IMG/VR virus record: IMGVR_UViG_3300046010_015054
Span: 106,106-170,105 of that record
Source of the DNA: a virus
Length of the DNA stretch: 64,000 nucleotides
Reading direction: 5' to 3' (one strand)
Shown: positions 12,403 to 61,991 of the stretch, piece by piece
Numbering within the stretch: the stretch's first letter is position 1
Layout of the letters: the number at the start of each line of letters is the position of its first letter
The notes under the pieces: model-generated
Database searches by the model: none
The model's input: the letters and a program-made list of their open reading frames with translations, nothing else
Told to the model about the DNA's origin: nothing
Translations under genes and position numbers: made by a program

Positions 12403-13622
12403 TATCCTATATAAATTGTCATTGGAACATTATTTAATTCTGATTTAGCGAATTCTGCTTCATCTTTTCTTCTTTCAAGACGTGCTTTACGAGAAGTTTC
12501 ATCAAAATATTCTCTTAAACGAGCTATTAATTTATCTTTTTCGTCTTTAGCAGCAGCAATTAAATCACCACCATTAAGTGTTACAGCTGCTCCTGGGATA
12601 GGGATTTGGGAATATTTATTTCTTACATATCCCAACATTTCTTTAGCTTGAGCTAAAGTATATTCAAATATCCAAGAACGACCTATAGAATTTATTTGAG
12701 AATAAACTGGGTTATTGTAAGGCATGTTAGATACATTTGTAATATATCCTGAACCTGATGCTCCACTACCAGTTTGTATAGAGTCTAAATATCTTTCACT
12801 CTTAATAATATATTCAAACCAGAAATTTACTCCATCATCTGCTGGAGTAGGTACTGGGAATACTTTAAGTTTATTATTTATAAGTTCAAAGCTATAAGCT
12901 GAGAATAAAATATCGTTTCCAAGTTCTACTTCTTGGATTGCTGCTACGTTGTATGATAAAGGTGTTACAAAGAAATTTGTACCGGCTCCATAACCAGCCA
13001 CACCACCTAAACCACCAAAGAAAGAGCCCCAACCGGCACCTAAACCAATACCACCTCCGTAGTAATAGTCTGCAGATGCAGGTACACCTTGATAAAAAAC
13101 TCTTTTAATTTCAAGCTCACTACCAGAAATACCTCGATCTTCAGCCCATTGATTTAAATCATATTCTTGTACACTACCTGTTAAAATAACAGATCCGCTA
13201 TACCAAGTTACATTACCCCCGGTTCCGGCTTCAGCACCATATTGTTCTGAAACTCTAATAATATTACTATAGTTTGGGGTAATACTAGCATTTTGAAAAG
13301 TATCTGGTGCTTCTTCTAGGGTCATTCCCTCGAAGTTTACAAGATTCTCTCTAACTAAATAAGCATAAAGTTCATTACCATAAACTGTAACCGCCATTTC
13401 AAAAGCAGTCCAAAAGTTTAAATCTTGTAATTCTACGTTTTCAATAGGCCATCCTAATCTTCTAGCACAGAAGTTTGTGACACTATTTGCATCATTTTGG
13501 AATTGTACATCATTATCATAAAACCCAAAAGGGGTAGGAGAAGGATACACATTCGATTGTGAAGTGTATAAATTTAAAGATTCTGTGAAATTTGAGGAGC
13601 CACTATATATAGGGATATTCAT
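12402..13622 (-). CDS. gp13: Neck protein, T4 gp13-like
   Basis: RRLGWPIENVEL near the N-terminus; WIFEYTLAQAKEMLG..R.KY..IPIPG..VTLNG at the C-terminus. Confidence 0.75.
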   Translation of the reverse strand: MNIPIYSGSSNFTESLNLYTSQSNVYPSPTPFGFYDNDVQFQNDANSVTNFCARRLGWPIENVELQDLNFWTAFEMAVTVYGNELYAYLVRENLVNFEGMTLEEAPDTFQNASITPNYSNIIRVSEQYGAEAGTGGNVTWYSGSVILTGSVQEYDLNQWAEDRGISGSELEIKRVFYQGVPASADYYYGGGIGLGAGWGSFFGGLGGVAGYGAGTNFFVTPLSYNVAAIQEVELGNDILFSAYSFELINNKLKVFPVPTPADDGVNFWFEYIIKSERYLDSIQTGSGASGSGYITNVSNMPYNNPVYSQINSIGRSWIFEYTLAQAKEMLGYVRNKYSQIPIPGAAVTLNGGDLIAAAKDEKDKLIARLREYFDETSRKARLERRKDEAEFAKSELNNVPMTIYIG

Positions 13623-13636
13623 TCTGCCTTTTTGTT

Positions 13637-13644
13637 ATAAATAT
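13637..13644 (-). promoter_or_regulatory. ATATTTAT putative late promoter
   Basis: Upstream of the neck genes. Confidence 0.65.
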
Positions 13645-13664
13645 CAAAAAGACAATAAATCAAA

Positions 13665-14387
13665 CTATTTTCTTGAAGTTCCTGATGTACCTAATTGTAC
13701 ACCTATTTCTTTAGCCTCTTCATAGTAATTAATTAAATCCCCAACAATAGGATCTCTATGGTTTTGCTTTAAAGTAATAGCCTCTAAATTTTTAATTTTT
13801 CTAGCTCCTTTATATAAGAATCTAAACCCAGAATCTTTTTTGTTTTTAAGGTCTACTTGAATATCGTCACCACAGATAATCATTTTAGATCGTAAACCTA
13901 TACGGGTTACAATCATTTCCATTTGCTCGTGGGTAACGTTTTGAGCTTCGTCTACAATAACAACACTATCAAGAAAAGTCCTACCGCGCATAAAAGATAA
14001 GGGTACAATTTCAAGAGATCCATCTTCGATAAGTTTTTCGACTTTGGTTTTATCATATAAGGCATACATGTTTTGGTAAATTGGTTGAATCCAGGGATCC
14101 ATCTTTTCTCTTAGATCTCCTGGTAGAAAACCTATTTCTTCTTTTGAAACTGTTGGACGTGTAATGATAATTTTATCTACCTCTCTCATAAATAATTTTT
14201 CGAGGGCAATTTGACACGCTAACAATGTTTTACCTGAACCGGCTGCTCCAGCTAATAATGTAACTGTACTTTGAAGTATTTTTGCTTTAGCTTCTTTTTG
14301 TTCTTGGTTTAATTCTATTTTAAATTTTATTGGGTTTTTTGGTTTACGTTTTTCTTTGAAAATATCTTCGTTAGATGTTGTATCCAT
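13665..14387 (-). CDS. phoH: PhoH-family ATPase
   Basis: GAAGSGKT Walker A, IIITRP, GFLPGDL.EK, FMRGRTF, DEAQN, GD..Q.D. Confidence 0.95.
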   Translation of the reverse strand: MDTTSNEDIFKEKRKPKNPIKFKIELNQEQKEAKAKILQSTVTLLAGAAGSGKTLLACQIALEKLFMREVDKIIITRPTVSKEEIGFLPGDLREKMDPWIQPIYQNMYALYDKTKVEKLIEDGSLEIVPLSFMRGRTFLDSVVIVDEAQNVTHEQMEMIVTRIGLRSKMIICGDDIQVDLKNKKDSGFRFLYKGARKIKNLEAITLKQNHRDPIVGDLINYYEEAKEIGVQLGTSGTSRK

Positions 14388-15105
14388 TTTTAAAATTTAT
14401 TTTTACTAGCTTATCTAAACCAGCATTTACGTGCATTGTATCTTCTAAAACTAATTCAAAGTCAAAACGTTCATCCAAAGGTAGAACTAAATCAACTTGA
14501 GACCCCCATCTAATTAATGAGAATCTTTCATTTTGGGCAAACACATCATATTGTTTGTTTGTAAAAGGAGCTATAACATTTACATCCTCATCTGCGATTT
14601 GTACTAAATGATATGAATAATCTAAAGATGGAACATAAATTTTGTTGTACATTCTTTCATTAAACTTTAAATAATCCATATTATTAGGATTAATTGCAGC
14701 ATTAAGAATGTCTTTTTCAACCGCTAACATGGGTTTATTTGTGCTTTCAATTGGGTCTAACGGCTTATACGTTAATACTCCCCCATATGGTATGCGATTA
14801 ATGTGAACGTCGTAGAACGACATAAAAATGCCTATAACTAAACTAGGTACGTTATAATCTTTATCACCTATAACATCCTGAAGTGTGTAGTTCATACCTT
14901 TAATTTCAACTACAGGCTCTGATGGGTCTGTAATAAATTTTTGGTAAAGAATTGTACCATCAGCAGGACTATAAAAATGTTCAAAATCTATATAGTTAGG
15001 ACGTAACGGGTCTCTAAAGAAGAATACATTTGATAATTCTCCGATAGGTAGTTTAGATAGTTCTTCTACTTCACCATCTAACCAATCTTCTAAATATTGG
15101 GCCAT
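14371..15105 (-). CDS. psd: Phosphatidylserine decarboxylase-like pyruvoyl enzyme (no obvious membrane anchor)
   Basis: FFFRDP, SPADG, IFMS.YDVH.NR.P, NER, QIA, and the self-cleavage motif WGSQVDL. Confidence 0.8.
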   Translation of the reverse strand: MAQYLEDWLDGEVEELSKLPIGELSNVFFFRDPLRPNYIDFEHFYSPADGTILYQKFITDPSEPVVEIKGMNYTLQDVIGDKDYNVPSLVIGIFMSFYDVHINRIPYGGVLTYKPLDPIESTNKPMLAVEKDILNAAINPNNMDYLKFNERMYNKIYVPSLDYSYHLVQIADEDVNVIAPFTNKQYDVFAQNERFSLIRWGSQVDLVLPLDERFDFELVLEDTMHVNAGLDKLVKINFKNGYNI

Positions 15106-16019
15106 TAAACTAAACTTTTAGTGTAATCTACGTAGTTAAGGTGCATTACCATACATGAAAGAAGAGCACCTGATTTCATATATTCTGAGATATTGAATAT
15201 AATAGGCTCCATTCCCTCGTTAGCACAAATTTTTTCTAGTGATTCAATCTTATGTTTTTCACCATCATACAATTCGTCTGTACGCTTTAATTCAGAAATG
15301 TTAGATGCTGCGAGAACCATATTTCCTAATCTTACAGCGTTTGTAATACCACCATATGCGTCATCAATATCAATATCAATGACCTCAGTTACAGATTCCA
15401 TAGCTTTAATTTCTTTAGGAGTAAAGAGTTCAGTACAAACTAAAGTTTTATCTTTAGATAATGGGAAAATAGAACAATCTAAGTGATATAGATATTCATC
15501 TACCATTTTAACGGGGATAATGTTCATATTAAATTGTTCAGCCATCCACTCATATGTTTTGATATCTGAACGAATTCCGTAACCACCAATGTAGATATTA
15601 TCGTGTAAGTATTTTAAATCTGCCTCGCCTTCCCATTTATGAGGACACATGTGAGTATTGTAACCCATTAAATCAAAAAATGGTTTACCTACTTTCTCTT
15701 CACCTTGTCTTGGTTCTGAGGTAAAGTTAGATAAGACTATATTGTTTGAATCTTTAATGTGGGGTAAATAAATGCCTAAATTAGCTACATATACTTGATC
15801 CTGGAAGTTACCAGCGCTTGGTAAAAGATAGGTTAAAGAAGCACCGGACATAAAATTATACAAGTCTAAAAATTGCTTGTAAGCTTTACCTCTATTGATT
15901 TTTAAATCTTCAGCTTCTAGTTCTTGCATCCAAACATTGTTTGGATTCGAGGTATCGAGCGTAAACGGGAAATTCATTACATAACTTGGTACCTGCAATT
16001 GCGAGGGAGTTTCTTTCAT
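15105..16019 (-). CDS. Pentein-superfamily amidinotransferase / arginine deiminase / DDAH-like enzyme
   Basis: DQVYVAN, R.GE, WEGEAD, YHLDC and C-terminal GALLSCM with the catalytic Cys. Confidence 0.85.
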   Translation of the reverse strand: MKETPSQLQVPSYVMNFPFTLDTSNPNNVWMQELEAEDLKINRGKAYKQFLDLYNFMSGASLTYLLPSAGNFQDQVYVANLGIYLPHIKDSNNIVLSNFTSEPRQGEEKVGKPFFDLMGYNTHMCPHKWEGEADLKYLHDNIYIGGYGIRSDIKTYEWMAEQFNMNIIPVKMVDEYLYHLDCSIFPLSKDKTLVCTELFTPKEIKAMESVTEVIDIDIDDAYGGITNAVRLGNMVLAASNISELKRTDELYDGEKHKIESLEKICANEGMEPIIFNISEYMKSGALLSCMVMHLNYVDYTKSLV

Positions 16020-16055
16020 TATAATACTTTTAAGTTATACTTACTTAGTTCCCCT

Positions 16056-16063
16056 ATAAATAT
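16056..16063 (-). promoter_or_regulatory. ATATTTAT putative late promoter
   Basis: Between a terminator and the amidinotransferase start. Confidence 0.65.
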
Positions 16064-16083
16064 AGTAAGGGTACTTAGAGTAG

Positions 16084-16108
16084 AAAAAGGCCTAGAAAAT
16101 TCTAGGCC
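16084..16108 (-). terminator. Rho-independent terminator
   Basis: GGCCTAGA-N4-TCTAGGCC hairpin followed by TTTTT on the minus strand. Confidence 0.7.
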
Positions 16109-16130
16109 CTTCTTTACAAATATTAAATTT

Positions 16131-16946
16131 TTATCCTATTCTACCAACAGTTAATATAACTGAAGGAACAGCAGGTCCTAAAGTAGGGGTTCCATTATAT
16201 AGAACAACAGCATTATTATCAGTGCCTGCCATTCTTAATTCATAATAATCTCCTGCTGAAGCTGAGAGATAAAAATTCCATGCAGCTACAGAGGAATCAT
16301 TAGATCCACCTCCTAAAGTAACTCCTGTATTACTATCATCAACATTATTTCCATTTTTTGCTAACCAAATATAAACTGTATTATTACTATTATTAGTTTT
16401 ACTTAATTGAGCTGAAAATTGAAGATCATAGATTCCAGTATTAGCTATTTTAATTTGGGTTTTATCTGAGCCACTAATACTAATACCACTAGCAAAGTCT
16501 GTGGTACTATAAGACATTGAATAAACTGTATTAGTTACTGATAAAGATATAGATGCTGTATGATACGCTGATAGATAATAATTAGTAACCCCACTACCAC
16601 CTGAAGTTCCACTAGAACCTGATGTTCCTGAAGAACCTGAAGAACCAGATGTTCCACTTCCTGAAGTTCCACTAGTACCACTTGAACCGGACGTCCCTGA
16701 AATACCCGATGTTCCTGAAGTACCATTTATACCTGATGTACCTGAAGTGCCTGCAACTCCTGAAGTACCCGAAGAACCAGAAGTACCACTACCTGATGTA
16801 CCTGAGGTTCCACTAGTACCTGATGTTCCGGAAAGAAATTGTGAATATTCTACTTGTTTTGTGACACTATCTTGAACTACAACAAATAATTCATCTCCTA
16901 CTAAAGGACCAGCTACAGGTAATTGAGATATAGGTAAATTAGGCAT
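16131..16946 (-). CDS. Short GTS-repeat virion protein with a C1q/BclA-CTD-like beta domain (head fibre/decoration candidate)
   Basis: N-terminal PISQLP motif, ~25 G-X-Y triplets, C-terminal ...IKIANTGIYDLQFSAQL...AGDYYELR. Lies two genes downstream of the MCP. Confidence 0.6.
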   Translation of the reverse strand: MPNLPISQLPVAGPLVGDELFVVVQDSVTKQVEYSQFLSGTSGTSGTSGTSGSGTSGSSGTSGVAGTSGTSGINGTSGTSGISGTSGSSGTSGTSGSGTSGSSGSSGTSGSSGTSGGSGVTNYYLSAYHTASISLSVTNTVYSMSYSTTDFASGISISGSDKTQIKIANTGIYDLQFSAQLSKTNNSNNTVYIWLAKNGNNVDDSNTGVTLGGGSNDSSVAAWNFYLSASAGDYYELRMAGTDNNAVVLYNGTPTLGPAVPSVILTVGRIG

Positions 16947-16948
16947 AA

Positions 16949-17194
16949 TTAAGTTATTATTATTTTGGAATTATCTTCTTGTAAAATATAAAATAAATTT
17001 TCTTGAAGCAAGAAATTTTCATCTTCGGTTAAATCAACATCTCCTTTATTTTGATACGTAATCCAATTTTGTCGAGCAATAGTTAATTCATATAAATATT
17101 GATTATAATATTTTACCTGTTCATTTAAAGGTAATTTTTTTATATGTTCAAATTGAACAAATTGTGGCCATAATATTTCTTCAAAAATATTCAT
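16949..17194 (-). CDS. Hypothetical virion-associated protein; start re-assigned to MNIFEE
   Basis: The track's upstream extension overlaps the MCP terminator and an ATATTTAT motif. C-terminal LLQE..ILQE repeat. Confidence 0.55.
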   Translation of the reverse strand: MNIFEEILWPQFVQFEHIKKLPLNEQVKYYNQYLYELTIARQNWITYQNKGDVDLTEDENFLLQENLFYILQEDNSKIIIT

Positions 17195-17217
17195 ATAATA
17201 TAAATATTGTAAAATGA

Positions 17218-17245
17218 AATAAGAAAGCCCCGCTTTCGCGGGGCT
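17218..17245 (-). terminator. Rho-independent terminator after the major capsid gene
   Basis: AGCCCCGC-GAAA-GCGGGGCT hairpin followed by a T-rich tract. Confidence 0.8.
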
Positions 17246-17268
17246 CTCCATTTCTATTCTAGGTTAGA

Positions 17269-19008
17269 TTAGAAGCTGGTTAAACCAGAAACGTAGATCT
17301 TACCATAGAATTCAGGACGTAACATCTTCTTAGCGTAGCGAGTCAAGAGACCTTTTCTTGGAGTGAAGGTTTCTGGATCGTAGATAAGAGGAGTCATGAT
17401 TAATGGAATGTAAGGAGCGAATACAGCACCAGCTTCCAAGAATTGAGTACCACGGAAGCCCATAAGAATTGTGTTTTCATTCATGTATGGGTTCTTGTAT
17501 ACAGTGTATCTGTTGTTGATAGCACCTGCTTTCTGTACACCAAAGGCGTAAGTCATTTTAGATACATCACCGTCAGAATTTGAAGCATATCCAGGGATAG
17601 ATTCAAGAACTGTAGCTACAGTTGGAGAACATACTAAGAAGTTTGCACCACCACGAAGAGTTAACTGGTGAATCTTGTTAGATAACTTCTGCATCTTAGT
17701 ACCAAGGGTTTGGAACCACTGGCCTTGAGTGTTGTAGTAACCACCGTTAGTAGCAGTTAACTGGCTAAAGTTATTAGTACCTGGATTGTAGAATTCGTTA
17801 GAAACTGCTGACCAGTACTCTGTACCTGCACCTGCGTCTTCAATTAACATGTCAAGGATTTCAAGGTCGATTTCAAGAGAAATGTACTCGCTCATGATGT
17901 TAGTTAATTCAGCTTCGGCGTCAAGAGCTTGGTAAGCATTAAGGTCTTGTGCGAATTCTGGAGTCCATACTGCTTTTAACTTCTTGGTCTTAGCAACAAT
18001 TGCTTGTGACTGCATCTGGATGTTGATCTGTGGGATCGCGATTTGAGTTGCGTCAAGAGAGTTAGGAATGGCGTATGTGTTATCAGCTTCAAAGTCACCG
18101 ATTTGGTATGGAGACATTGTAGTTGCCTTCTGGTAGAATACTTGGAAATTACCAGTAAGAGTACCAGCATTTAAAGCATTAACTGCAAGGTTTGCTAAAG
18201 CAGCTGAAGTTGTGAAGTAGAAACTAATAGTGTTAGCAGTGTAGTTGTAAGTAGTAAATGCTGGTAATAAGTTATCAGCAGTAAACGAACCTGAAACAGG
18301 AACGAAACCTCTTACGGCATCTGGATCAAAGTTAGGAAGCTCTGTAGTAGCAGTAGCAACAGTTACTTTTAAGATTTGATTAGCAGCTGCTGAAGCTGAT
18401 AATTCAGAATCAAAGTTTAACTGAGACCATAAAGAAGCAGAGGCCATAGATAATGAACCTGTACCTACTGATTCAGAGAACTGGTTGGTTGAGTAAGTAA
18501 ACTTACCAGCACCATAAAGACCACCAGTGTTGTTTTCAGCTAAGTTGCTAACACCAGTAGAGAATGGATATTGTGCAGATCCAGTGTTTCCGTAAAGTGA
18601 CTCACCAGCAGTAAATGGAGTTTTAGTATTACCATACTGGAAATCAAGGAAGAACACAAGGCCTGAAGGAAGGTTCATTGGCTGTACAGAAACGAATTCT
18701 TTAGCAGCGATTTGACCAAATACCTTACGTACCAATGGAAGAGCTACACCAGCCCATTCAGCACCTGTACCTACTGTGAAGGCACCAGCACCGTTACCTG
18801 AACCACCACCAGGGTTAGTTGAGGTTTCTACTACAAGCTGCTTAGCTTGGTTTTCAAGGATCATTGACATGTTGTTCTTGTCAGTCTCACTACCGAGACC
18901 TTCAAGTAAACCTGTCTTCTCCCACTTTGCAGCTAATTTAGCTGCGTCAGACTGAAGGTTTTTCCAACCAGCAGCTGATGACTCTAAAAGAGATTGAAGT
19001 TGTGACAT
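17269..19008 (-). CDS. gp23: Major capsid protein, T4 gp23-like
   Basis: KWEKTGLLEG, VSVQPM..PSGLVF, AKTKKLKA.WTPE.AQDL.AY, APYIPL, F.P.KG..TRY. Confidence 0.95.
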   Translation of the reverse strand: MSQLQSLLESSAAGWKNLQSDAAKLAAKWEKTGLLEGLGSETDKNNMSMILENQAKQLVVETSTNPGGGSGNGAGAFTVGTGAEWAGVALPLVRKVFGQIAAKEFVSVQPMNLPSGLVFFLDFQYGNTKTPFTAGESLYGNTGSAQYPFSTGVSNLAENNTGGLYGAGKFTYSTNQFSESVGTGSLSMASASLWSQLNFDSELSASAAANQILKVTVATATTELPNFDPDAVRGFVPVSGSFTADNLLPAFTTYNYTANTISFYFTTSAALANLAVNALNAGTLTGNFQVFYQKATTMSPYQIGDFEADNTYAIPNSLDATQIAIPQINIQMQSQAIVAKTKKLKAVWTPEFAQDLNAYQALDAEAELTNIMSEYISLEIDLEILDMLIEDAGAGTEYWSAVSNEFYNPGTNNFSQLTATNGGYYNTQGQWFQTLGTKMQKLSNKIHQLTLRGGANFLVCSPTVATVLESIPGYASNSDGDVSKMTYAFGVQKAGAINNRYTVYKNPYMNENTILMGFRGTQFLEAGAVFAPYIPLIMTPLIYDPETFTPRKGLLTRYAKKMLRPEFYGKIYVSGLTSF

Positions 19009-20467: not shown

Positions 20468-21076
20468 TTATAAAACGGGACAGGTCCCGTTCGCACAAAG
20501 GATTTCAGTAAGTAATGAATTAACTTTTTGATATTTGTTAAACTTTACTTCTTCAATTCCTTCTTTAACTAAGTGCATGTATGAGCCTGGGTTAGATGGT
20601 GTTGAAACAAAGTCCCAACAAATAAGATTAAAGTCATCTTGTACTTCCATCATACCACCTGACATAGGTTTTAGTGAACCCTCACCACGTGAAGAAACAC
20701 CTACTACTACACCATTTTCAATAAGAGCTTTAAGGATATTTCCTGTTGCTGTAGGTAGGATTTCAATTTTACCCATAACTTCATCCCCATCCCACCAAAC
20801 TTCTCTAATAATGTGTGATACATTTTTAAGGTTGATAATTGAAGAATCTGGGTGGTCTAATTCACCAGTTGCTCTATTTTCTTTGACTATATCTTGATAT
20901 TTGTCGATTTCTCTTTTCCAAATTTCAGGAGCATAGTATCTAGAGTTACCATTTTTAACACCAGCAGTAGCTAAAATACCCTCAACAAGAGGATTTCCAG
21001 CAGGTGTTTTAAGACCTTCAGTTAACTGAACTGGGTTAACTTTAAATAATTGGGTTTCAATTAAAACCTGTTTCAT
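20468..21076 (-). CDS. gp21: Prohead protease, T4 gp21-like
   Basis: N.N.R.Y, GELDHP, VSHII, GVSSRG.GS, WDFVSTPS. Confidence 0.92.
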   Translation of the reverse strand: MKQVLIETQLFKVNPVQLTEGLKTPAGNPLVEGILATAGVKNGNSRYYAPEIWKREIDKYQDIVKENRATGELDHPDSSIINLKNVSHIIREVWWDGDEVMGKIEILPTATGNILKALIENGVVVGVSSRGEGSLKPMSGGMMEVQDDFNLICWDFVSTPSNPGSYMHLVKEGIEEVKFNKYQKVNSLLTEILCANGTCPVL

Positions 21077-23174: not shown

Positions 23175-23211
23175 TCCTAAATCAGGATTTCTTATAAATA
23201 TATCAGGATTC

Positions 23212-25104
23212 TTACTCAGTTAAATTAGATTCATCTAATAATGACTCTTTATTTTTGTCACTTTCAAACACTAATTGTTTAGATAAACTTTCAATTAACG
23301 TTCTGTTTTTAGCGAATACTGATTTAGCATTTTCTAAGGCTAAAGGTGATCCACCTTTAAAATTAGTTCTACCAAATTCTTCTTGGTCGTCAACTTTCAT
23401 TGACTTAACACCTAATCTATCCTTACCAAAATTATCATCTTGAGTATTTCTATCTGATGATTTTTCTTCAGGGCGGCCTAATGGTACTTTTTCATCATAT
23501 CCATCAGGTACTGAGTTAGCTTCATATCTTCCTTTACCATATAAAGAAGCTAAATCGTGTGGGGTACCATAAGATTTACCTGTTTCTAATGGGTCATTAC
23601 CTTCATCAGCAATTTGTTGATTACGGAAAGCACGTTTTTGGTCTTCAATAATAAGATCTCTATATTCATCGAATTGATCTTCACTGAAGTGGAACACATT
23701 ATCGTAAATCCAATCTGTTGGAAGGATTTTACTATCTAAAATATCTTTAGCTAATGCTACTTTTTCTTTTAATAATGCAATTTTTTCCTGATCGTAAATA
23801 ATTGAAGGAGTAGTTAAACTTAACTCGAAATTAGTTAATTGTTCTCCATCATATCCTTGTGTGTATAAGTGTACTAAACCAATTTTATACAATTCAGATA
23901 ATACAATCTTTTGGATACGTTCAATTGTACGAGCAAATCGAATATCTTCAGCAGCTAATGTAGCTTTACCTGTCAAATCTTTCTCGTAACCCATAAACGC
24001 TTTAGGTACCTTAAGAGCAGCAAATAATTTGTCTCTTAAGTAAGCAACGTCTTCAATACCATTGTATTCTAGACCTTTTGTAGTATCGATTTTAGTTGCC
24101 GTGTCATTACCTCTTACTGGAATGAAGAAATCCTCAAGGATATTCTGCATGTTATATTTTAAGTTATATTCACCAGTATTGGGATCCATTAACGGAGTTT
24201 TCTTCATATTGTTGATTGTCTTCTGCATGAAAGCATCAACTTCTTGTGGTGGGATGTTACCTACGTTAATATAGAAAACACGTTTTTCTGGGGCGCGAGC
24301 AATTCTGTGAATAAGCATCGCATCTTCCATTAACACATATTGCTTAAATAAACGACGTGCTGGTTCTAAGTAAGAACGACCATAAGGAAGATAATTTACA
24401 TCCGTAATTAAACGAAAGTGAGCAATCTCATAATTGTCAAATTTAATTTGATTAGCCGTATCTATTTTTTCATTTGGAGTAGCATAGTAACCAGAACCTC
24501 CAGTAAAGTAACCATCTGGGTTGTAGAGGAATTCTACTTTAGATGGGTTTTTAGGGTCAAAATTTTCTTTTCTTTGAATGTGGTAAGCAGTATAAGGAAT
24601 AACATTGTATACTCCGAATTTTTCTGCAATTTCTAATTTGATAAAGAAATCACCATACTTACACATTTGACGAATCCAAGACCATAGGTTGAATTCGATA
24701 TTTAAAACATCATAGAATAAATTGTATAAAGTTTTTTGAATATCTTCATCACTACTTCTAATTTGAAGTACCTCACCCATATCATTTTTTAGGGTACATT
24801 CGTCCGCTACAATATCAAGAGCAGAAGCAATAATTGCATCTGTATCCATCTGATCGTAATCACCATATAGATAAGTTCTATAATATTGATAGTTAAGGTT
24901 AAATTGTTGTGCTAAAAGAGATGTAGCTGCGGGGTTGGTATAAATTTTACCAAATCTATCTACAACTGAGTTGGTTTGGAATTCACCTGTGGTTTGAATT
25001 CTATCTGGGTCAATAACTTTTAATTGACCATCTCCTTCACTACGAATAATAACGTCCGTAGAGAAGAGTCTTCTTAACCTTGAAAATATATCAGTTTGTG
25101 CCAT
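23212..25104 (-). CDS. gp20: Portal protein, T4 gp20-like
   Basis: LMEDAMLIHRIARAPEKRVFYINVGN, EDFFIPVRG, DVAYLRDKLFAALKVP. Confidence 0.95.
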   Translation of the reverse strand: MAQTDIFSRLRRLFSTDVIIRSEGDGQLKVIDPDRIQTTGEFQTNSVVDRFGKIYTNPAATSLLAQQFNLNYQYYRTYLYGDYDQMDTDAIIASALDIVADECTLKNDMGEVLQIRSSDEDIQKTLYNLFYDVLNIEFNLWSWIRQMCKYGDFFIKLEIAEKFGVYNVIPYTAYHIQRKENFDPKNPSKVEFLYNPDGYFTGGSGYYATPNEKIDTANQIKFDNYEIAHFRLITDVNYLPYGRSYLEPARRLFKQYVLMEDAMLIHRIARAPEKRVFYINVGNIPPQEVDAFMQKTINNMKKTPLMDPNTGEYNLKYNMQNILEDFFIPVRGNDTATKIDTTKGLEYNGIEDVAYLRDKLFAALKVPKAFMGYEKDLTGKATLAAEDIRFARTIERIQKIVLSELYKIGLVHLYTQGYDGEQLTNFELSLTTPSIIYDQEKIALLKEKVALAKDILDSKILPTDWIYDNVFHFSEDQFDEYRDLIIEDQKRAFRNQQIADEGNDPLETGKSYGTPHDLASLYGKGRYEANSVPDGYDEKVPLGRPEEKSSDRNTQDDNFGKDRLGVKSMKVDDQEEFGRTNFKGGSPLALENAKSVFAKNRTLIESLSKQLVFESDKNKESLLDESNLTE

Positions 25105-25109
25105 ATCTA

Positions 25110-25117
25110 ATAAATAT
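25110..25117 (-). promoter_or_regulatory. ATATTTAT putative late promoter
   Basis: Overlaps the terminase stop; upstream of portal. Confidence 0.65.
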
Positions 25118-26685
25118 TATAACAACCATCTTAAATCCTCATTTTGCCCATTTACTTTATGGTTATAAGGATTTTCAATTTGACGGCCGTATGCGAATTG
25201 TGGTTGATCTCTTCTTTGAATGTTATTTAAAGCACTTCGAGTTAGATCTAAGTTTTGTTGTTGGAATTTAAGTGAGGTATCTCTTAAGAACATACCAATG
25301 CCAAATGGCATTACTAAGTCATCATTATACCCTGTTTGAGCTTCGGGACGACCATTCTTCCAAACAAATACTTTCATTTCTTCAAGTAAACGCTTTGAAC
25401 GAATAGTTACACTTTTATCTCCCACGAACTCTCTAAATTTATTAACTACTAATGGTCGGGTTCTCATTGACATTGTAAAACCAGGAACCATATTTGAGTC
25501 ATTTTCATATGATTTAAGATACGACTCAGCTGTTAATTGATCACTCTTAGGTGAGTGATAGAGGTTTCTATATCCTCTTTCTATTACGGCTTCAATAGTT
25601 GCCCAACCAATTGAAGCGTTTTCAATAACAAGAAGTGCGTTATTGTATTCAGTAGCAATTGCTACTAAAAGAAAACCAAATTCTCTAGTAGGTAATTGAC
25701 CCTTATATTCTGCTACTTGTATATTAGTTTCAATATCAATTACGTGGAATGTAGAAAAGTCTTTACCATCACCACGAGCAACGTCTGCTAATACCATATA
25801 ATCTCTAGAATAATCAGCAGGTTCCCAAACCCATAAATTTTGGTCTACACCTCGTCTTTCAACTGGATCTTTAATAGTAGTTTCTTTAATAAATTCTAAC
25901 CACTCTGGGTAGAATACTACATCACCTGAAGTGCTAAAGTCACAGTCACATTCTTGTGCTGCTAATCTAGGGTCACCAAGTAATTCGTCTTGTCGTTTTC
26001 GCCAAGCTTCATCTCGTTCAGGGTGTACAAACCAAGGTAATTTGATAGGTAAGAAGTCGTTCTCTCCCGATTCCGCTCTCACCCATGTCTGGTGGAACCA
26101 GTTTCCAGTTCCATAAGGGGTAGAAAGTACTATTGCTCCACCACCCGTTGCTAGTGTTTGTTGTGCTGATGCCCATATTTCTCCAATTCCTTCAATAAAC
26201 GCAGCCTCGTCAATCAACAGAAGAGATACTGCTTCTGATCGACCTGCATCACTTGATGCTGAAGTTGCTTTAATTTGAGATCCGTTACTTAATCGAAGGG
26301 ATAATTTATTGTTTTCGTCTGCTGTTATTTTTAACCATGAAGGTAGATTATCAAACATGAATTTTACTTTCGTAACCATGTTACGAGCAGTTTCCTGTTT
26401 AGTTGCGATACAGAGTACGTTTTTATCTTTATGGAATAACATTAACCATAAAGAATAACCTGCGGCTAAGGTTGAAATGCCTAACTGACGAGATTTAAGT
26501 ACAACTGAGTATGGGTTATCTCTCCAAAGGTGTAATGCCTTTTCTTGGAAAGGATATAAATTAAAATACACCCTACCTCTTTGTGGGTGTTGAATATAAC
26601 AATATTTACGCATAAAGTGTGCTGGGTCAGTAGCACACTTAATATATTCTTGTTGGATTATTTGTCTTAAATTACTATCACTCAT
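25117..26685 (-). CDS. gp17: Terminase large subunit, T4 gp17-like
   Basis: LYPFQ, KSRQLGIST, LLIDEAAF Walker B, STPYG, nuclease DVARGDG.D and C-terminal DDLVM. Confidence 0.95.
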   Translation of the reverse strand: MSDSNLRQIIQQEYIKCATDPAHFMRKYCYIQHPQRGRVYFNLYPFQEKALHLWRDNPYSVVLKSRQLGISTLAAGYSLWLMLFHKDKNVLCIATKQETARNMVTKVKFMFDNLPSWLKITADENNKLSLRLSNGSQIKATSASSDAGRSEAVSLLLIDEAAFIEGIGEIWASAQQTLATGGGAIVLSTPYGTGNWFHQTWVRAESGENDFLPIKLPWFVHPERDEAWRKRQDELLGDPRLAAQECDCDFSTSGDVVFYPEWLEFIKETTIKDPVERRGVDQNLWVWEPADYSRDYMVLADVARGDGKDFSTFHVIDIETNIQVAEYKGQLPTREFGFLLVAIATEYNNALLVIENASIGWATIEAVIERGYRNLYHSPKSDQLTAESYLKSYENDSNMVPGFTMSMRTRPLVVNKFREFVGDKSVTIRSKRLLEEMKVFVWKNGRPEAQTGYNDDLVMPFGIGMFLRDTSLKFQQQNLDLTRSALNNIQRRDQPQFAYGRQIENPYNHKVNGQNEDLRWLL

Positions 26686-27356: not shown

Positions 27357-27378
27357 TAGTGTGTTTTCTTTATAAATA

Positions 27379-27909
27379 TTACAAAGAAAGCGCCTTCTTC
27401 ACCTGCTTTATTCGTTCTTCAGTATCACCTTTAATTTCACAATAATTTTTTATTCTGTGTTTATACTTAGATATAGTACTTTGAATAATAAAATTAATTA
27501 AGTTTCTATATTCAAGATCAGTTTCTCGAACACCATTATCCTCCATTTCTACTCCTTCGGGTGATACATAAAATATATAATCGTATTCTGGGAGTAAATT
27601 AGCAGCTAGATTAGCAAAATCTTCAGCATCATTATAATTTATTGATTTAGCTGCTCGTGCAAATGAGATAATATCAATAATAGTACGATCTGTAATAATG
27701 TTATCGTGCATTAATTCACTAGCACGTTCTGCTAGGAACACACATTGACCCTTTAATGTGGAATCTGTATTTAAAGGGATTCCCATCTCCATTAAGTATT
27801 TAGAACGTTCAGTTCTAAACATATAATCCTTAAATTCCGGTAACTCTTTTAATGCATTTACAAGTGTAGTTTTACCTACACTCATAGTACCACAAAAACC
27901 TATTTTCAT
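27379..27909 (-). CDS. P-loop nucleotide kinase / NadR-type AAA_28 ATPase
   Basis: GTMSVGKTTL, ITDRT..D, EDNGVRE. Confidence 0.75.
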   Translation of the reverse strand: MKIGFCGTMSVGKTTLVNALKELPEFKDYMFRTERSKYLMEMGIPLNTDSTLKGQCVFLAERASELMHDNIITDRTIIDIISFARAAKSINYNDAEDFANLAANLLPEYDYIFYVSPEGVEMEDNGVRETDLEYRNLINFIIQSTISKYKHRIKNYCEIKGDTEERIKQVKKALSL

Positions 27910-28286: not shown

Positions 28287-28558
28287 TAAAATCTTGTAGT
28301 TCCTTTCATTGAAGCATTTTTATACCAAGGTAAGCCTTCTCTATCTTTGCGTGCTTGGCTCCATTCTTCAAGGGTTAATTGTTTCCCGTATAAATAATAT
28401 TCTTTCTTAAGCTCACTTTCTTCTCCTTCAATAGGTTGAACTGCAGGCCCTTCCCAGTTATGATATTTCCAAGCTTCGCTTCCGCTTTCTCTAAAGAAGT
28501 AGTGATGTGCTCCTTTAGATTTCATTCTTTTTTCTTCGTAAATTGTTTCTTTTTTCAT
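28286..28558 (-). CDS. Hypothetical protein
   Basis: HNWEGPA..EYYLYG motif; translationally coupled to both neighbours. Confidence 0.6.
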   Translation of the reverse strand: MKKETIYEEKRMKSKGAHHYFFRESGSEAWKYHNWEGPAVQPIEGEESELKKEYYLYGKQLTLEEWSQARKDREGLPWYKNASMKGTTRF

Positions 28559-29919
28559 ACGTAATGGCTAATAAATTCTGGGTATTCTTTGTCTCTAAGA
28601 TAATAAGAGAGAATGTCTTCGGCAACATAAATTGCTTGAGCTCCTGATACTGTAATACCACGAGCACTTAATGCATCACCTACAAAGTGTACATTTGAGA
28701 ACTTGGTAAGAGACAAGTTGCGGTAGTTTACAAGTGGTTCAGGAGATAGATATTTTACTTCAGGAATGTAAATACCCCAATCATCTTCTAATGTTGGGAA
28801 TACTTTTTTCATATCCTCGATAAAGTCCATAATGTAAGTCCAATACTCACCCATTACATGTTCTACTCCACTTAAAAATTCAATTTGATAAGCAGATACT
28901 CCATTACCTTCTGAGGTAGTTGAAGGAACTCGAGTAGGTGAATAATACAAACCAGTACCATTAAACTGGAGCTTGTTTACAACATCACGCGACCAAGCAA
29001 ATGGATCTTCAATACCATTAATTTCCATCAAGATACCAAAATTGGTCATATCGTTTCGGTAACGCATGTCTTTTTTAGCGTGACCATTGTAGCTGTGATC
29101 ACCATATGTTTCTTCTACAGCAACATAAGCTGCGTTATTGTTTGTACAGAATGAGCGAAGCGAAACACCTTTATCTTCAAATTTGCGATACAACTTAAAG
29201 TCGTATGAAATGTCGATTAGTTTTTGGAAGTGTTTTTGTGGTGCTTCAAATCGAACTCCAATCTGGACTGATTTGGGTTCGTCTGGTAATTCGTATTGGT
29301 GGGCTAGCTCTTGAGCAAAGTCAATACCTGATTTACCTACTGCAAAAATAAGTTCATCGTAAAAAATGGAATCATTATCCATAGTTGCAAATTCAGGTTT
29401 AACCGAATGCATTACAACCTCGTTGTGTCTAAAATTGATACTGGTTACTTTAGTTTCCCATTTAAACTCTACTCCTTTAGACACTAAATAATCGTACCAG
29501 TTTTTAGCGATTTCAGATAGATAATCTGTACCTACGTGCCAAACGGGAAACAATCGTAAACCGAAATATGGTTTAATAAATTCTGGTTCTGATTCTGGGT
29601 TTGAACACTGTACTTCCTCTGGTTTAGGATGGAAACGCTTAAAATTGGTGATGACTTGATCCATCAATTCCATTGCTTTTTCCTCACCACAATACTTAGA
29701 CAATTGACCTCCAATTGCTGTGTGATAAGTTAGTTTACCATCAGACCAACCACCTGCACCCAAGAAACCAGTCATTACTTCTTCTGGTTTGCGATTGTAT
29801 GGGTCTTTACCCATATCAATGATTGTGATTAGTTCACCAGGATAACCTTTGTCTACAAGCTTAGTAGCAGCATTCACTCCTGCTACACCTGCACCTACGA
29901 TTACAATTTGTTTTTCCAT
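28555..29919 (-). CDS. FAD-dependent oxidoreductase
   Basis: IVGAGVAG Rossmann motif, GAGGWSDGKL, IGVRFE, RSFCTN, NGH, FVGD..RGI..SG. Confidence 0.85.
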   Translation of the reverse strand: MEKQIVIVGAGVAGVNAATKLVDKGYPGELITIIDMGKDPYNRKPEEVMTGFLGAGGWSDGKLTYHTAIGGQLSKYCGEEKAMELMDQVITNFKRFHPKPEEVQCSNPESEPEFIKPYFGLRLFPVWHVGTDYLSEIAKNWYDYLVSKGVEFKWETKVTSINFRHNEVVMHSVKPEFATMDNDSIFYDELIFAVGKSGIDFAQELAHQYELPDEPKSVQIGVRFEAPQKHFQKLIDISYDFKLYRKFEDKGVSLRSFCTNNNAAYVAVEETYGDHSYNGHAKKDMRYRNDMTNFGILMEINGIEDPFAWSRDVVNKLQFNGTGLYYSPTRVPSTTSEGNGVSAYQIEFLSGVEHVMGEYWTYIMDFIEDMKKVFPTLEDDWGIYIPEVKYLSPEPLVNYRNLSLTKFSNVHFVGDALSARGITVSGAQAIYVAEDILSYYLRDKEYPEFISHYV

Positions 29920-41227: not shown

Positions 41228-41245
41228 GTAGTTTTCTTATAAATA

Positions 41246-41824
41246 TTAGTCTTTCTTTAAACTTTGCAGGAATTTAATAGTGTCTTCCTTCTGTTTTAAG
41301 AGTAAATTTTTACTTGAACCAACCCATTTTTCAACGTCACCCGCTTCTGTAATAAAGGATTGATTATCTTGGTTTTGGATTTCTTCGTTTATCCATTCTT
41401 CAAATTCCTTCATAACACCATCTAAGCCCTGGTTGTTAACTTTCTTTTGATAAGCTTCCCATTGCCCTGAAGTTCTGAGGTGGGTTTCAAAGTCTATTTG
41501 GCAATCAAAGCAGTGTTGGTATAGTTGAAACCATTTTTTGTCTAAATGGGGTTTCATTTTCTTTTTACATGAAGGGCAAAAAAGAGGAAAGTTGACAGCT
41601 TCACGTGCTTTATCCAGTTTTGTAACATTTTGTTTAATACCATCTTTAATAGTCCAGGTTTTCCCGTCTAATTCCCAAATATCACCCTCTTTGTGTACCT
41701 CAGAATTTTCTTTAGTAAAACCAACAGATGTACTTACTTTATCACCATATTTTTTAGTAACAAGATTTCGGAGACGTTGTACATCTTTTTCTTTAAATTC
41801 TTTTTTTAAAACATTATCTTTCAT
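41246..41824 (-). CDS. Hypothetical Zn-finger protein
   Basis: EGDIWE..GK.WTIKDG, CPSC...CFDC. Confidence 0.65.
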   Translation of the reverse strand: MKDNVLKKEFKEKDVQRLRNLVTKKYGDKVSTSVGFTKENSEVHKEGDIWELDGKTWTIKDGIKQNVTKLDKAREAVNFPLFCPSCKKKMKPHLDKKWFQLYQHCFDCQIDFETHLRTSGQWEAYQKKVNNQGLDGVMKEFEEWINEEIQNQDNQSFITEAGDVEKWVGSSKNLLLKQKEDTIKFLQSLKKD

Positions 41825-43873: not shown

Positions 43874-43889
43874 TCAAACGCGTTTGCGT

Positions 43890-43897
43890 ATAAATAT
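43890..43897 (-). promoter_or_regulatory. ATATTTAT putative late promoter
   Basis: Overlaps the exonuclease stop; upstream of the zeta-like kinase. Confidence 0.65.
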
Positions 43898-50248: not shown

Positions 50249-50268
50249 CTTATATTTTAGATTTTGTT

Positions 50269-50276
50269 ATAAATAT
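50269..50276 (-). promoter_or_regulatory. ATATTTAT putative late promoter
   Basis: Upstream of the tail-collar-type genes. Confidence 0.65.
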
Positions 50277-60426: not shown

Positions 60427-61643
60427 TATATAGTTCGTACAGAATTAGATAATAATGTTTGTAAACGTCCTTGTATGCTTCTAAATGCTATATTACTTAC
60501 TTGAGCTGCACTTCTTGTAGGTTCTAAAGGAACACCTGGGGTTAAGGTAGTCTGAAGTGATAAGTTTTGGGTTAAAGTGATTAATTCGTTAAGAATATCA
60601 CTAAGTACATTTACAGTATCATTACCATATAAAACTTGTTGAGTAGCATTTTTAGATCCTAAATAAACATCATTTCCTTGTAGAGTTATAGGACCCGTTG
60701 TATCAAAATTTATAGATTCAACTGCTGTAAATCCTATAGATTTTTGAGAAGAAAATAATAAATGATCTTGTGTTGTGTTGAATACTAATCGACCAGAATT
60801 TAAAATAATTTGCTTTCCAGCATATTGATCTGGGGCTGTAGGTTTAGCATTATCTGGATAGCTATAGTATTGGTTAATTTCAACTGCTTTAGATTGTAAT
60901 GGAATTTTTTGTGTACTTGCTAAATAAATTGAAGCATCATCACCATTTATTATATCAGTTTGAGGAACCCATGCAGGATCATTGGTATTAACCTGACCAT
61001 TTCTAATAATTGTAATAGGACTACCTACGGGTCCAACTGAGGACCAAGGATTTGCTTGAGGATTTTCAGCAGTACTTCCAAATCTAATACCTTGACCCCA
61101 CCTACCCTCATAAATTATATCTCCAGGATAGGCTCTAGATGGGTGAATATTATTTTGTTCTTCAAAACCAGGTCCTAAATCTAAAGCAGGTTCTTGATCT
61201 TCAATAACATTGCCTACACCTTGAAATGAAGTAAGATAATTTTTCTTTGTTTGAAGATTAGGATCTAAAGGATTTGGAGTTGCGTTTTGATGTGGTGTAT
61301 TCCAAAGATTAAAAACAGAAATATAATAAGATTTAAAATCCGAAACGTTTGTTTGACCTGTGATTTTATCTAAGCCTTGAACAAGTAAAACAACCTCATT
61401 TTTTAAAGGATATTGTTTAATATTTGGATAAAACGGACTAGCAATGTTGTATGTACCAAAAGAAACCCCTAAAGGATCTCTTACAAGTTCAAATTCTATT
61501 GTACCAATTGAAGTCCAACCTCCATATTGTTTAAATTTTGGATGAGTATCATCTAAGATAATATCTATAACTCTAACTGGGGTGAGTAGAGTTTCAATGT
61601 AAAAATTGGATTTTTGATTATCTTTTATAAAGGGGCTACCCAT
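60426..61643 (-). CDS. Baseplate hub/central spike protein (gp5/VgrG-like)
   Basis: OB-fold-like N-terminus (G.I.F..YPL.NEVV), GDIIYEGRWGQGIRFGST, beta-repeat region, V.LG...V.YG. Confidence 0.55.
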   Translation of the reverse strand: MGSPFIKDNQKSNFYIETLLTPVRVIDIILDDTHPKFKQYGGWTSIGTIEFELVRDPLGVSFGTYNIASPFYPNIKQYPLKNEVVLLVQGLDKITGQTNVSDFKSYYISVFNLWNTPHQNATPNPLDPNLQTKKNYLTSFQGVGNVIEDQEPALDLGPGFEEQNNIHPSRAYPGDIIYEGRWGQGIRFGSTAENPQANPWSSVGPVGSPITIIRNGQVNTNDPAWVPQTDIINGDDASIYLASTQKIPLQSKAVEINQYYSYPDNAKPTAPDQYAGKQIILNSGRLVFNTTQDHLLFSSQKSIGFTAVESINFDTTGPITLQGNDVYLGSKNATQQVLYGNDTVNVLSDILNELITLTQNLSLQTTLTPGVPLEPTRSAAQVSNIAFRSIQGRLQTLLSNSVRTI

Positions 61644-61972: not shown

Positions 61973-61983
61973 ACTTTTTGTGT

Positions 61984-61991
61984 ATAAATAT
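61984..61991 (-). promoter_or_regulatory. ATATTTAT putative late promoter
   Basis: Immediately after the sigma-like gene; heads the baseplate module. Confidence 0.65.

Follow-up and report, generated by a model that had tools for sequence, protein, structure and literature searches.

A mobile gene pair of large phages and bacteria proposed to convert arginine to putrescine with an ArgZ-like dihydrolase and a soluble PSD-fold decarboxylase

Introduction

What does a large phage do with a pentein-fold enzyme and a relative of phosphatidylserine decarboxylase (PSD), encoded side by side between its capsid and neck genes? This arrangement is found in the window analysed here, a stretch of 64,000 nucleotides that forms the final 64 kb of the 170,105-bp IMG/VR virus record IMGVR_UViG_3300046010_015054, which CheckV rates as complete. 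Nearly all genes of the window lie on the minus strand, and three of them concern us: gene 1 (the pentein), gene 2 (the PSD-like protein) and gene 3 (a PhoH-like ATPase) (Table 1). A first-pass annotation had read genes 1 and 2 as an amidinotransferase and a decarboxylase that could act in sequence (seryl to aminoethyl to guanidinoethyl) on something other than a lipid, for example a glycan, a nucleotide, a DNA base or a protein of the virion. Here, we propose instead that they constitute a two-enzyme module which would convert L-arginine to putrescine, a reading towards which we lean by a small measure.

Results

The two genes travel as a unit in phages and bacteria

Co-occurrence of the two families was the check that the first-pass annotation had itself proposed, and the distribution of the genes supports its view that the two enzymes are a functional pair. 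In the lineage of the window, approximately 150 IMG/VR contigs (66-100% identity) share the gene arrangement capsid - (variable) - pentein - PSD-like - PhoH - neck, and the catalytic residues of the pair are all intact in 151 viral relatives (66-100% identity). When 50,697 phage records were searched, the two proteins turned up together in two groups, Campylobacter Fletchervirus (about 40 records) and Bacteroides DAC/SJC phages (six); the sole other match was a weak, DDAH-like one in a Xanthomonas phage. In phage DAC19 the pair is adjacent and in the same order as in the window, and the rest of the 17 kb is unlike the window. Prokaryotic genomes, each species being represented by one, were scanned with a 12-sequence alignment, and 80 loci emerged. 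They span more than 10 phyla, among them Actinomycetota, Verrucomicrobiota, Gemmatimonadota, Acidobacteriota, Pseudomonadota, Campylobacterota, Latescibacterota and Planctomycetota. In 76 of the 80, the PSD-like gene directly adjoins, on the same strand, a homologue of gene 1 (39-69% identity), the order being mostly PSD then pentein. In trees, the bacterial sequences cluster largely by phylum and the phage-type sequences fall outside the clade that these form. For the two proteins, patristic distances are correlated (r = 0.89; Mantel 0/999), although kinship alone yields part of this correlation. Because adjacency and the correlation of tree distances coincide, we conclude that the pair is passed on, by descent and by transfer, as a single unit.

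Five contigs of metagenome-assembled genomes that are labelled bacterial (L163, L164, L165, L183 and L214) have the phage-type order, pentein then PSD-like. One of these, L164 (NZWA01000018.1, from a Flavobacteriales assembly), also bears capsid, protease and other genes of the window's phage lineage; it is thus a phage contig that was binned into that assembly, and this hints at the identity of the host.

Gene 1 is a distant, single-domain relative of ArgZ

Gene 1 has no Pfam match at E 0.01, the amidinotransferase family included, and in PHROGs it belongs to a family of unknown function. Its only relatives by sequence among solved structures are ArgZ (Synechocystis Sll1336) and AgrE (Anabaena Alr4995) (PDB 6juy, 6jv0 and 6lrf), with an E-value to Sll1336 of 1.5e-17 by phmmer against the PDB and 7e-29 with a profile. 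Similarly, an AlphaFold (AF2) model built from 36 diverse homologues (pLDDT 93.4) was matched by Foldseek to the N-domain of ArgZ at E 8e-22 (TM 0.80/0.89, rmsd 2.4 Å), to DDAH at 3e-12 and to the amidinotransferases HsvA, SxtG and AGAT at about 1e-10. ArgZ and AgrE are therefore the best match by sequence, profile and fold alike.

The correspondence extends to the active site. Cys289, His179, Glu130 and Asn80 of gene 1 are equivalent to Cys264, His168, Glu118 and Asn71 of ArgZ, so that the Cys-His-Glu triad and the ArgZ-specific Asn are shared, along with the motifs RQGEE, GYGxRS and YHLD. Arg104 sits in RQGEE, which is identical in ArgZ, and Arg150 in GYGxRS; both presumably hold the alpha-carboxylate of the substrate, a role that we assume from DDAH and ArgZ structures. 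Across the 36 diverse rows of the family, N80, R104 and E107 are invariant and E130, R150, H179 and C289 are present in at least 90%, while the triad and N80 are also conserved in the 151 viral sequences. At the position of Asn80, DDAH and the transferases carry an Asp. The Asp/His/Cys motifs described in the first-pass annotation hold in part: H179, D181 and C289 are kept, whereas gene 1 resembles ArgZ in having an Asn (Asn80) at the first of the 'Asp' sites. The ArgZ N71S mutant, trapped on a reaction intermediate, is the title subject of PDB entry 6juz.

The best NCBIfam model for gene 1 is arginine dihydrolase (5.7e-23), with scores of 81.5 bits to NF052232 (cut-off 450) and 79.8 bits to NF052231 (cut-off 1025); the DDAH model, at 77.5 bits, is close behind. 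Identity to ArgZ and AgrE is just 22-23%. Furthermore, gene 1 is a single domain without the C-terminal ornithine-cyclodeaminase-type domain of the two-domain ArgZ/AgrE architecture, it is paired with a decarboxylase, and it is found in phages and non-cyanobacterial phyla. With 81 bits against a cut-off of 450, gene 1 is a distant single-domain relative of ArgZ and not its orthologue. From its sequence and model, we predict that it is an ArgZ/AgrE-like dihydrolase of guanidino groups. The assignment as an amidinotransferase is disfavoured by the lack of a Pfam match, by Asn80 in place of Asp and by the far weaker fold matches.

Gene 2 belongs to a soluble subfamily of the PSD fold

Gene 2 matches PF02666 at 7.4e-22, above the gathering score. 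As had been noted in the first pass, it contains the motifs SPADG, HINRIP (H-x-N-R-x-P) and WGS and has no membrane anchor, its N-terminus being acidic and not hydrophobic. Its AF2 model (pLDDT 90) gave VIA Z scores of 11.4 to E. coli PSD (residues 39-252), 9.9 to PsiD and 9.7 to Ao-ADC1; with all three between 9.7 and 11.4, the fold does not discriminate between an arginine and an ornithine decarboxylase. Comparison with E. coli PSD (PDB 6l06/7cnw), for which residue roles were taken from PMC7952604, equates Asp49, His101 and Gly201-Ser202 of gene 2 with Asp90, His144 and Gly253-Ser254, the Asp and His being residues on which processing depends, and places R104 at the position of H147. The fold, SPADG and the Gly-Ser site are thus common to gene 2, E. 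coli Psd and the short archaeal-type Asd/PSD proteins. However, gene 2 has no equivalent of the N-terminal ~45 residues of E. coli PSD, which comprise the membrane helices and the majority of the acyl-chain contacts: L13, V37 and F41 align to gaps and the structural match begins at residue 39-40. In addition, the phosphate-binding Ser166/Val167 region is represented by a new loop with conserved Asn123, Met126 and Glu130, and Ala203, beside the acyl-chain surface, is an invariant Asp172 in the gene 2 subfamily. With these two acidic residues (Asp172 and Glu130) close to the pyruvoyl site, a substrate with a cationic side chain would fit.

Gene 2 scores 68.4 bits against the best NCBIfam PSD model (cut-off 183), and all 13 PSD/Asd models are below their cut-offs. 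A phmmer search of 1.84e9 cluster representatives found only 595 proteins at E<=1e-3, so ordinary PSDs were not reached. By sequence, therefore, gene 2 represents a small, separate, soluble subfamily of the PSD fold. The Gly-Ser site is present in every member, and a hydrophobic N-terminus in none of the members that were inspected. Taken with the model, this leads us to predict a pyruvoyl-dependent amino-acid decarboxylase.

There are fungal precedents for such an activity. Ao-ADC1 of Aspergillus oryzae (PDB 9JER/9JF5) is a PSD-fold pyruvoyl arginine decarboxylase without PSD activity (PMC12904898), and PsiD of Psilocybe (PDB 8x4q) is a tryptophan decarboxylase. Like gene 2, both have the PSD fold (PF02666) and a self-cleaving pyruvoyl site, and they act on free amino acids; unlike gene 2, they are 440-480 aa long and have an extra N-terminal helical region. 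The sequence match of gene 2 to PsiD (E 0.1) is not significant and 9JER was not found by the search, which suggests that gene 2 is an independent bacterial and phage offshoot of the short PSD type, with a predicted substrate.

Several homologues of gene 2 have unusual features. Among P0126, P0264, P0134 and P0128, some contain a LAGLIDADG intein, and among the homologues one carries a fused Acb1 anti-CBASS domain and another a fusion to VapB-like and ADP-ribosyltransferase domains, although both fusions may be artefacts of gene calling. The PSD-like gene of Fletchervirus is overlapped at its end by a Hef homing endonuclease gene (L006:6731-8185). In Streptomyces stramineus (L227), a PSD-like gene without a pentein partner (7884-8720) adjoins a non-ribosomal peptide synthetase (NRPS) gene (11160-16717). 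The products of bleomycin clusters end in polyamine-type amines. The record of the Fletchervirus NCTC12673 describes its PSD-like gene as similar to an ORF of the bleomycin cluster (AF210249).

Neighbours of the pair

Exporter genes are the commonest companions in bacteria. Within 3 kb of the pair in the 71 loci that have the bacterial gene order, a MATE transporter occurs in 41 and a fused ABC transporter in 14, several of the remaining loci being truncated. Occasional neighbours are the aminopropyltransferase SpeE, AguA-like agmatine deiminases and the acetylglutamate kinase ArgB, and in Verrucomicrobiales loci a PotD/PotF-like binding protein lies near the pair. Rfam detected no riboswitch upstream of the operons in eight bacterial loci, and no serine-attaching, acceptor-making or other modification enzyme is conserved with the pair in bacterial neighbourhoods. 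In five genomes that bear the module, SpeA was above cut-off in none and OKR_DC decarboxylases were absent from two. The module is also present in the reduced 1.7-Mb genome of Ca. Glomeribacter.

In phages, the surroundings depend on the lineage. The neighbours in DAC19 are a DnaB-like helicase, dUTPase/DCD-like proteins, an IMPDH/GMP-reductase-like protein and a DEAD helicase; those of the two genes in NCTC12673 are the gp41 helicase, the gp45 clamp, GroES and UvsW. Since these pairs sit among replication and nucleotide-metabolism genes, the capsid-neck position is peculiar to the lineage of the window and cannot support the argument for particle decoration that had been drawn from a late, structural context. 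The same applies to gene 3. It is a clear PhoH protein (PF02562: 2.3e-63, 213.9 bits, cut-off 27) with the P-loop GAAGSGKT, and PhoH follows the pair in most of the ~150 related viral loci. However, PhoH lies near the pair in none of the 80 bacterial loci and does not adjoin it in DAC19 or NCTC12673. PhoH is therefore a lineage-specific neighbour outside the conserved pair.

The unusual nucleotide-metabolism set of DAC19, with two dUTPase/dCTP-deaminase-like genes and one IMPDH/GMP-reductase-like gene (L004:6282-6800, 11396-11893 and 11904-12878), may signal modified DNA. Outside the window, the phage itself encodes FolE, QueD and QueC (record coordinates 60946-61485, 64376-64786 and 65724-66386), and no TGT/DpdA was detectable in it with Pfam. 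For Campylobacter viruses the other modified base is reportedly deoxyinosine, which a 2019 paper by Crippen names and which we presume to be that of Fletchervirus; 7-deazaguanine is carried by the CP220-type Campylobacter phages (Cui 2023). Related Flavobacterium and Cellulophaga phages have a divergent DpdA3, and their G is fully replaced by 7-deazaguanine (PMC10516641); by analogy, the phage genome studied here probably carries the same modification. A link between this modification and the gene pair was considered and rejected, as the modified Flavobacterium phage immuto is not among the matches of either protein.

Organisation of the locus

The three coupled genes lie between capsid and neck genes at the positions first described, with both flanks confirmed (Table 1). 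The sequence shows both couplings, with the stop of gene 1 and the start of gene 2 merged in TAATG at 15105 and a 17-nt overlap joining gene 2 to gene 3.

Table 1. Features of the window at and around the three-gene set
Feature	Position	Strand	Remarks
Giant collagen-like protein	2-2809	-	>=936 aa; Gly-X-Y repeats
Giant collagen-like protein	2832-10760	-	2642 aa; Gly-X-Y repeats
Neck gene	12402-13622		downstream flank; weak head-tail adaptor match
ATATTTATA motif, second copy	13636-13644	-	14 nt ahead of neck gene
Gene 3 (P0003)	13665-14387	-	240 aa; PhoH-like ATPase
Overlap of genes 2 and 3	14371-14387	-	17 nt
Gene 2 (P0002)	14371-15105	-	244 aa; soluble PSD-fold proenzyme (predicted), Gly201-Ser202
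Gene 1 (P0001)	15105-16019	-	304 aa; stand-alone pentein-fold, ArgZ/AgrE-like
ATATTTATA motif	16055-16063	-	36 nt ahead of gene 1
Hairpin GGCCTAGAA..TTCTAGGCC and T-run	16084-16108	-	terminator-like; 3' of stop of collagen-like gene
Collagen-like protein	16131-16946		directly upstream of three-gene set
Small ORF	16949-17251	-	100 aa; between capsid and collagen-like genes
ATATTTATA motif	17091-17099	-	
ATATTTATA motif	17199-17207	-	
gp23-type capsid protein	17269-19008		upstream flank of three-gene set
Head protease	20468-21076		head region
ATATTTATA motif	23193-23201	-	
Portal	23212-25104		head region
Large terminase	25117-26685		head region
ATATTTATA motif	27371-27379	-	
ATATTTATA motif	41238-41246	-	
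ATATTTATA motif	43889-43897	-	
ATATTTATA motif	50268-50276	-	
ATATTTATA motif	61983-61991	-	

A stem formed by GGCCTAGAA and TTCTAGGCC and followed by a T-run stands ahead of the three genes, as had been reported; this terminator-like hairpin would end the transcript of the collagen-like gene. No terminator was found 3' of the PhoH gene, so that the description of the cassette as insulated is accurate for its 5' side and not for its 3' side. Ten copies of the 9-mer ATATTTATA lie in the window, where 2.6 would be expected; every one is on the coding strand, and none of 100 shuffles reached 10. The majority of the copies are 13-36 nt 5' of a start codon. Thus, ATATTTATA is a real recurrent signal, and probably a promoter element with very short leaders. 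The first-pass annotation had called it a late-type promoter; the recurrence on the coding strand agrees with a promoter, whereas 'late' is deduced only from the genes that stand behind the motif.

The 100-aa ORF has no family match. Its start falls within a strong terminator hairpin (17249-17222) and two ATATTTATA copies lie inside it, so that the gene may be spurious or may have its true start further downstream. The two giant collagen-like proteins are rich in Ser, Thr, Pro, Glu and Asp, and the G+C content of their genes is 45-52%, compared with ~33% elsewhere. An enrichment of [ST]GS, whose correlation with the two enzyme families had been suggested as a check, is accounted for by these Gly-X-Y proteins.

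Discussion

A proposed route from arginine to putrescine

Pyruvoyl-dependent decarboxylases form a Schiff base with the free alpha-amino group of the substrate and remove its alpha-carboxyl, and penteins with a Cys-His-Glu triad attack a guanidino carbon. The pair is conserved with no other gene than an exporter of small cations, and arginine is the only common metabolite with both a free alpha-amino acid moiety and a guanidino group; we therefore take arginine, as the simplest choice, for the candidate substrate of the module. Gene 1 would hydrolyse the guanidino group in the manner of ArgZ, giving the amine, CO2 and 2 NH3. Gene 2 would cleave itself at Gly201-Ser202 to generate its pyruvoyl cofactor and would then remove the alpha-carboxyl, and the net product of both steps would be putrescine. 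We modestly favour the order arginine, ornithine, putrescine, because the pentein keeps both of the arginines, R104 and R150, that we presume to bind the carboxylate. The alternative order, with agmatine as the intermediate, is suggested by analogy with Ao-ADC1, which shows that the PSD fold can accept arginine.

The bacterial neighbours from arginine and polyamine metabolism (SpeE, AguA-like, ArgB and PotD-like proteins) agree with an arginine-to-putrescine reading, as does the absence of SpeA from the five module genomes and of OKR_DC decarboxylases from two of them. In bacteria, the product would be exported by the adjacent MATE or ABC pump, as in decarboxylase-antiporter systems, or passed to polyamine enzymes encoded nearby. 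In the phage, which encodes no pump and no enzyme for later polyamine steps, the diamine would accumulate in the infected cell, where it could serve in DNA condensation, as a counter-ion in packaging, or in translation. Use as a packaging counter-ion would fit the promoter-like motif in the head module. In its fullest form, our proposal is that a mobile pair, present in more than 10 phyla and usually accompanied by an exporter, is an undescribed arginine-to-putrescine route in which an ArgZ-like dihydrolase works with a PSD-fold pyruvoyl decarboxylase of a new prokaryotic ornithine/arginine class; that large phages have captured it at least three times (the abundant aquatic lineage, Bacteroides DAC and Campylobacter Fletchervirus); and that it is expressed here with the head genes to supply a packaging counter-ion for a 170-kb genome. 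We put this complete scenario somewhat below an even chance.

Our analysis establishes the folds and catalytic residues of the two proteins, the coupling of their genes and the surroundings in which they occur; from these we deduce a substrate, a product and a purpose. Several observations count against the proposed route. As both proteins score far under the curated cut-offs of their nearest families (81 against 450 and 68 against 183 bits), the substrate could differ from arginine. The presumed carboxylate-binding role of R104 and R150 is carried over from DDAH and ArgZ structures. An exporter beside a primary polyamine pathway is unusual and would equally fit a secreted specialised metabolite, and the AguA-like genes in ~7 loci would be redundant beside a dihydrolase. 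In NCTC12673 the two genes are 43 kb apart. Finally, the phage lacks any downstream polyamine enzyme, the SpeE, SpeD and Sacchrp_dh families all being absent from it; a 454-aa 'dehydrogenase' (28555-29919) was considered as a homospermidine synthase and discarded, since it has only a weak match to FAD-oxidoreductases.

Alternative explanations

The secreted-metabolite interpretation is the general form of the virion-decoration idea. The decarboxylase would turn an amino acid (serine-phosphate, aspartate, lysine or some other) into an amine, and the pentein would transfer the amidino group of arginine to this amine; bacteria would export the resulting guanidino-amine (agmatine-like, guanidinoethyl or arcaine-like), and phages might modify DNA or virions with it. 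The pentein superfamily does include amidinotransferases, and the model of gene 1 matches HsvA, SxtG and AGAT, but ArgZ and AgrE match ten orders of magnitude better, the invariant Asn80 replaces the Asp of transferases and DDAH, and Pfam finds no amidinotransferase. Conserved MATE/ABC exporters, the NRPS genes near some actinomycete loci and the fusion of one gene 2 homologue to the anti-defence protein Acb1 would suit a specialised product. However, no enzyme that attaches serine or makes an acceptor is conserved with the pair, and other phages carry the pair outside structural modules. The lack of a serine-attaching enzyme and the ArgZ-like hydrolase with its ArgZ Asn also speak against the original seryl-to-guanidinoethyl sequence on a virion protein, glycan or DNA, and we regard even the general form as unlikely.

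Less likely again, in our judgement, is that the module degrades or detoxifies some other guanidino amino acid (homoarginine, canavanine, methylarginine or an arginine antimetabolite), with the pump exporting the product and phages being protected by, or exploiting, the compound. Its attractions are that enzymes plus an efflux pump resemble the layout of resistance cassettes, that both enzymes fall far below the arginine-specific and PSD-specific cut-offs, and that the NCBIfam DDAH model nearly equals the ArgZ model. Nevertheless, a pair that spans more than 10 phyla, largely along phylum boundaries, and persists in the reduced Ca. Glomeribacter genome points to a common substrate, and the ArgB, SpeE and PotD-like neighbours point to arginine and polyamine metabolism. 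We give very little credence to the possibility that gene 2 is a genuine PSD which raises host phosphatidylethanolamine, with gene 1 as an unrelated auxiliary gene of arginine catabolism and their adjacency meaningless. Database annotations do say PSD, PF02666 is matched above its gathering score and E. coli PSD is the best structural match. However, the N-terminal amphipathic helices for membrane binding and the lipid-tail contacts are missing, the score is far from the PSD equivalog cut-off and relatives are few, and adjacency in 76 of 80 loci together with co-evolution cannot be chance. Moreover, E. coli PSD is inactive when the substrate has no acyl chains (PMC7952604), and a soluble form would accordingly have to act on something new.

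Relation to known systems and significance

Virus-encoded polyamine synthesis is established, with ADC/AIH/NCPAH/HSS in PBCV-1 and SpeD-derived ornithine/arginine decarboxylases in phages (Li et al. 2023, PMC9992855, PMC10407285). Those systems resemble the proposed module in raising the supply of diamine or polyamine and in having recruited pyruvoyl decarboxylases from another family, although the enzyme families are wholly different and the proposed route has two enzymes as opposed to three. A systematic survey of polyamine genes in viruses (PMC9992855) mentions neither the PSD-like nor the ArgZ-like family, a July 2025 article (PMC12283126) lists just three routes from agmatine to putrescine, all with other enzymes, and full-text searches found no literature on this gene pair. 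Both folds and both chemistries are known. What would be new is the conserved two-gene module, with predicted activities, comprising a soluble PSD-fold amino-acid decarboxylase of prokaryotes and phages and a stand-alone ArgZ-like enzyme.

The hypothesis is open to direct tests, as both proteins are small and soluble and phage-host pairs are in culture (DAC19 with B. thetaiotaomicron and Fletchervirus with C. jejuni), and our analysis counsels caution in transferring the 'PSD' annotation to soluble members of PF02666. If the proposed activities are correct, the pair would constitute a fourth way to make putrescine and would provide a function for thousands of bacterial and phage genes now annotated as 'phosphatidylserine decarboxylase', 'amidinotransferase' or 'DDAH'. 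Furthermore, virus-encoded polyamine synthesis would then extend to phages of Bacteroides and Campylobacter and to abundant aquatic phages.

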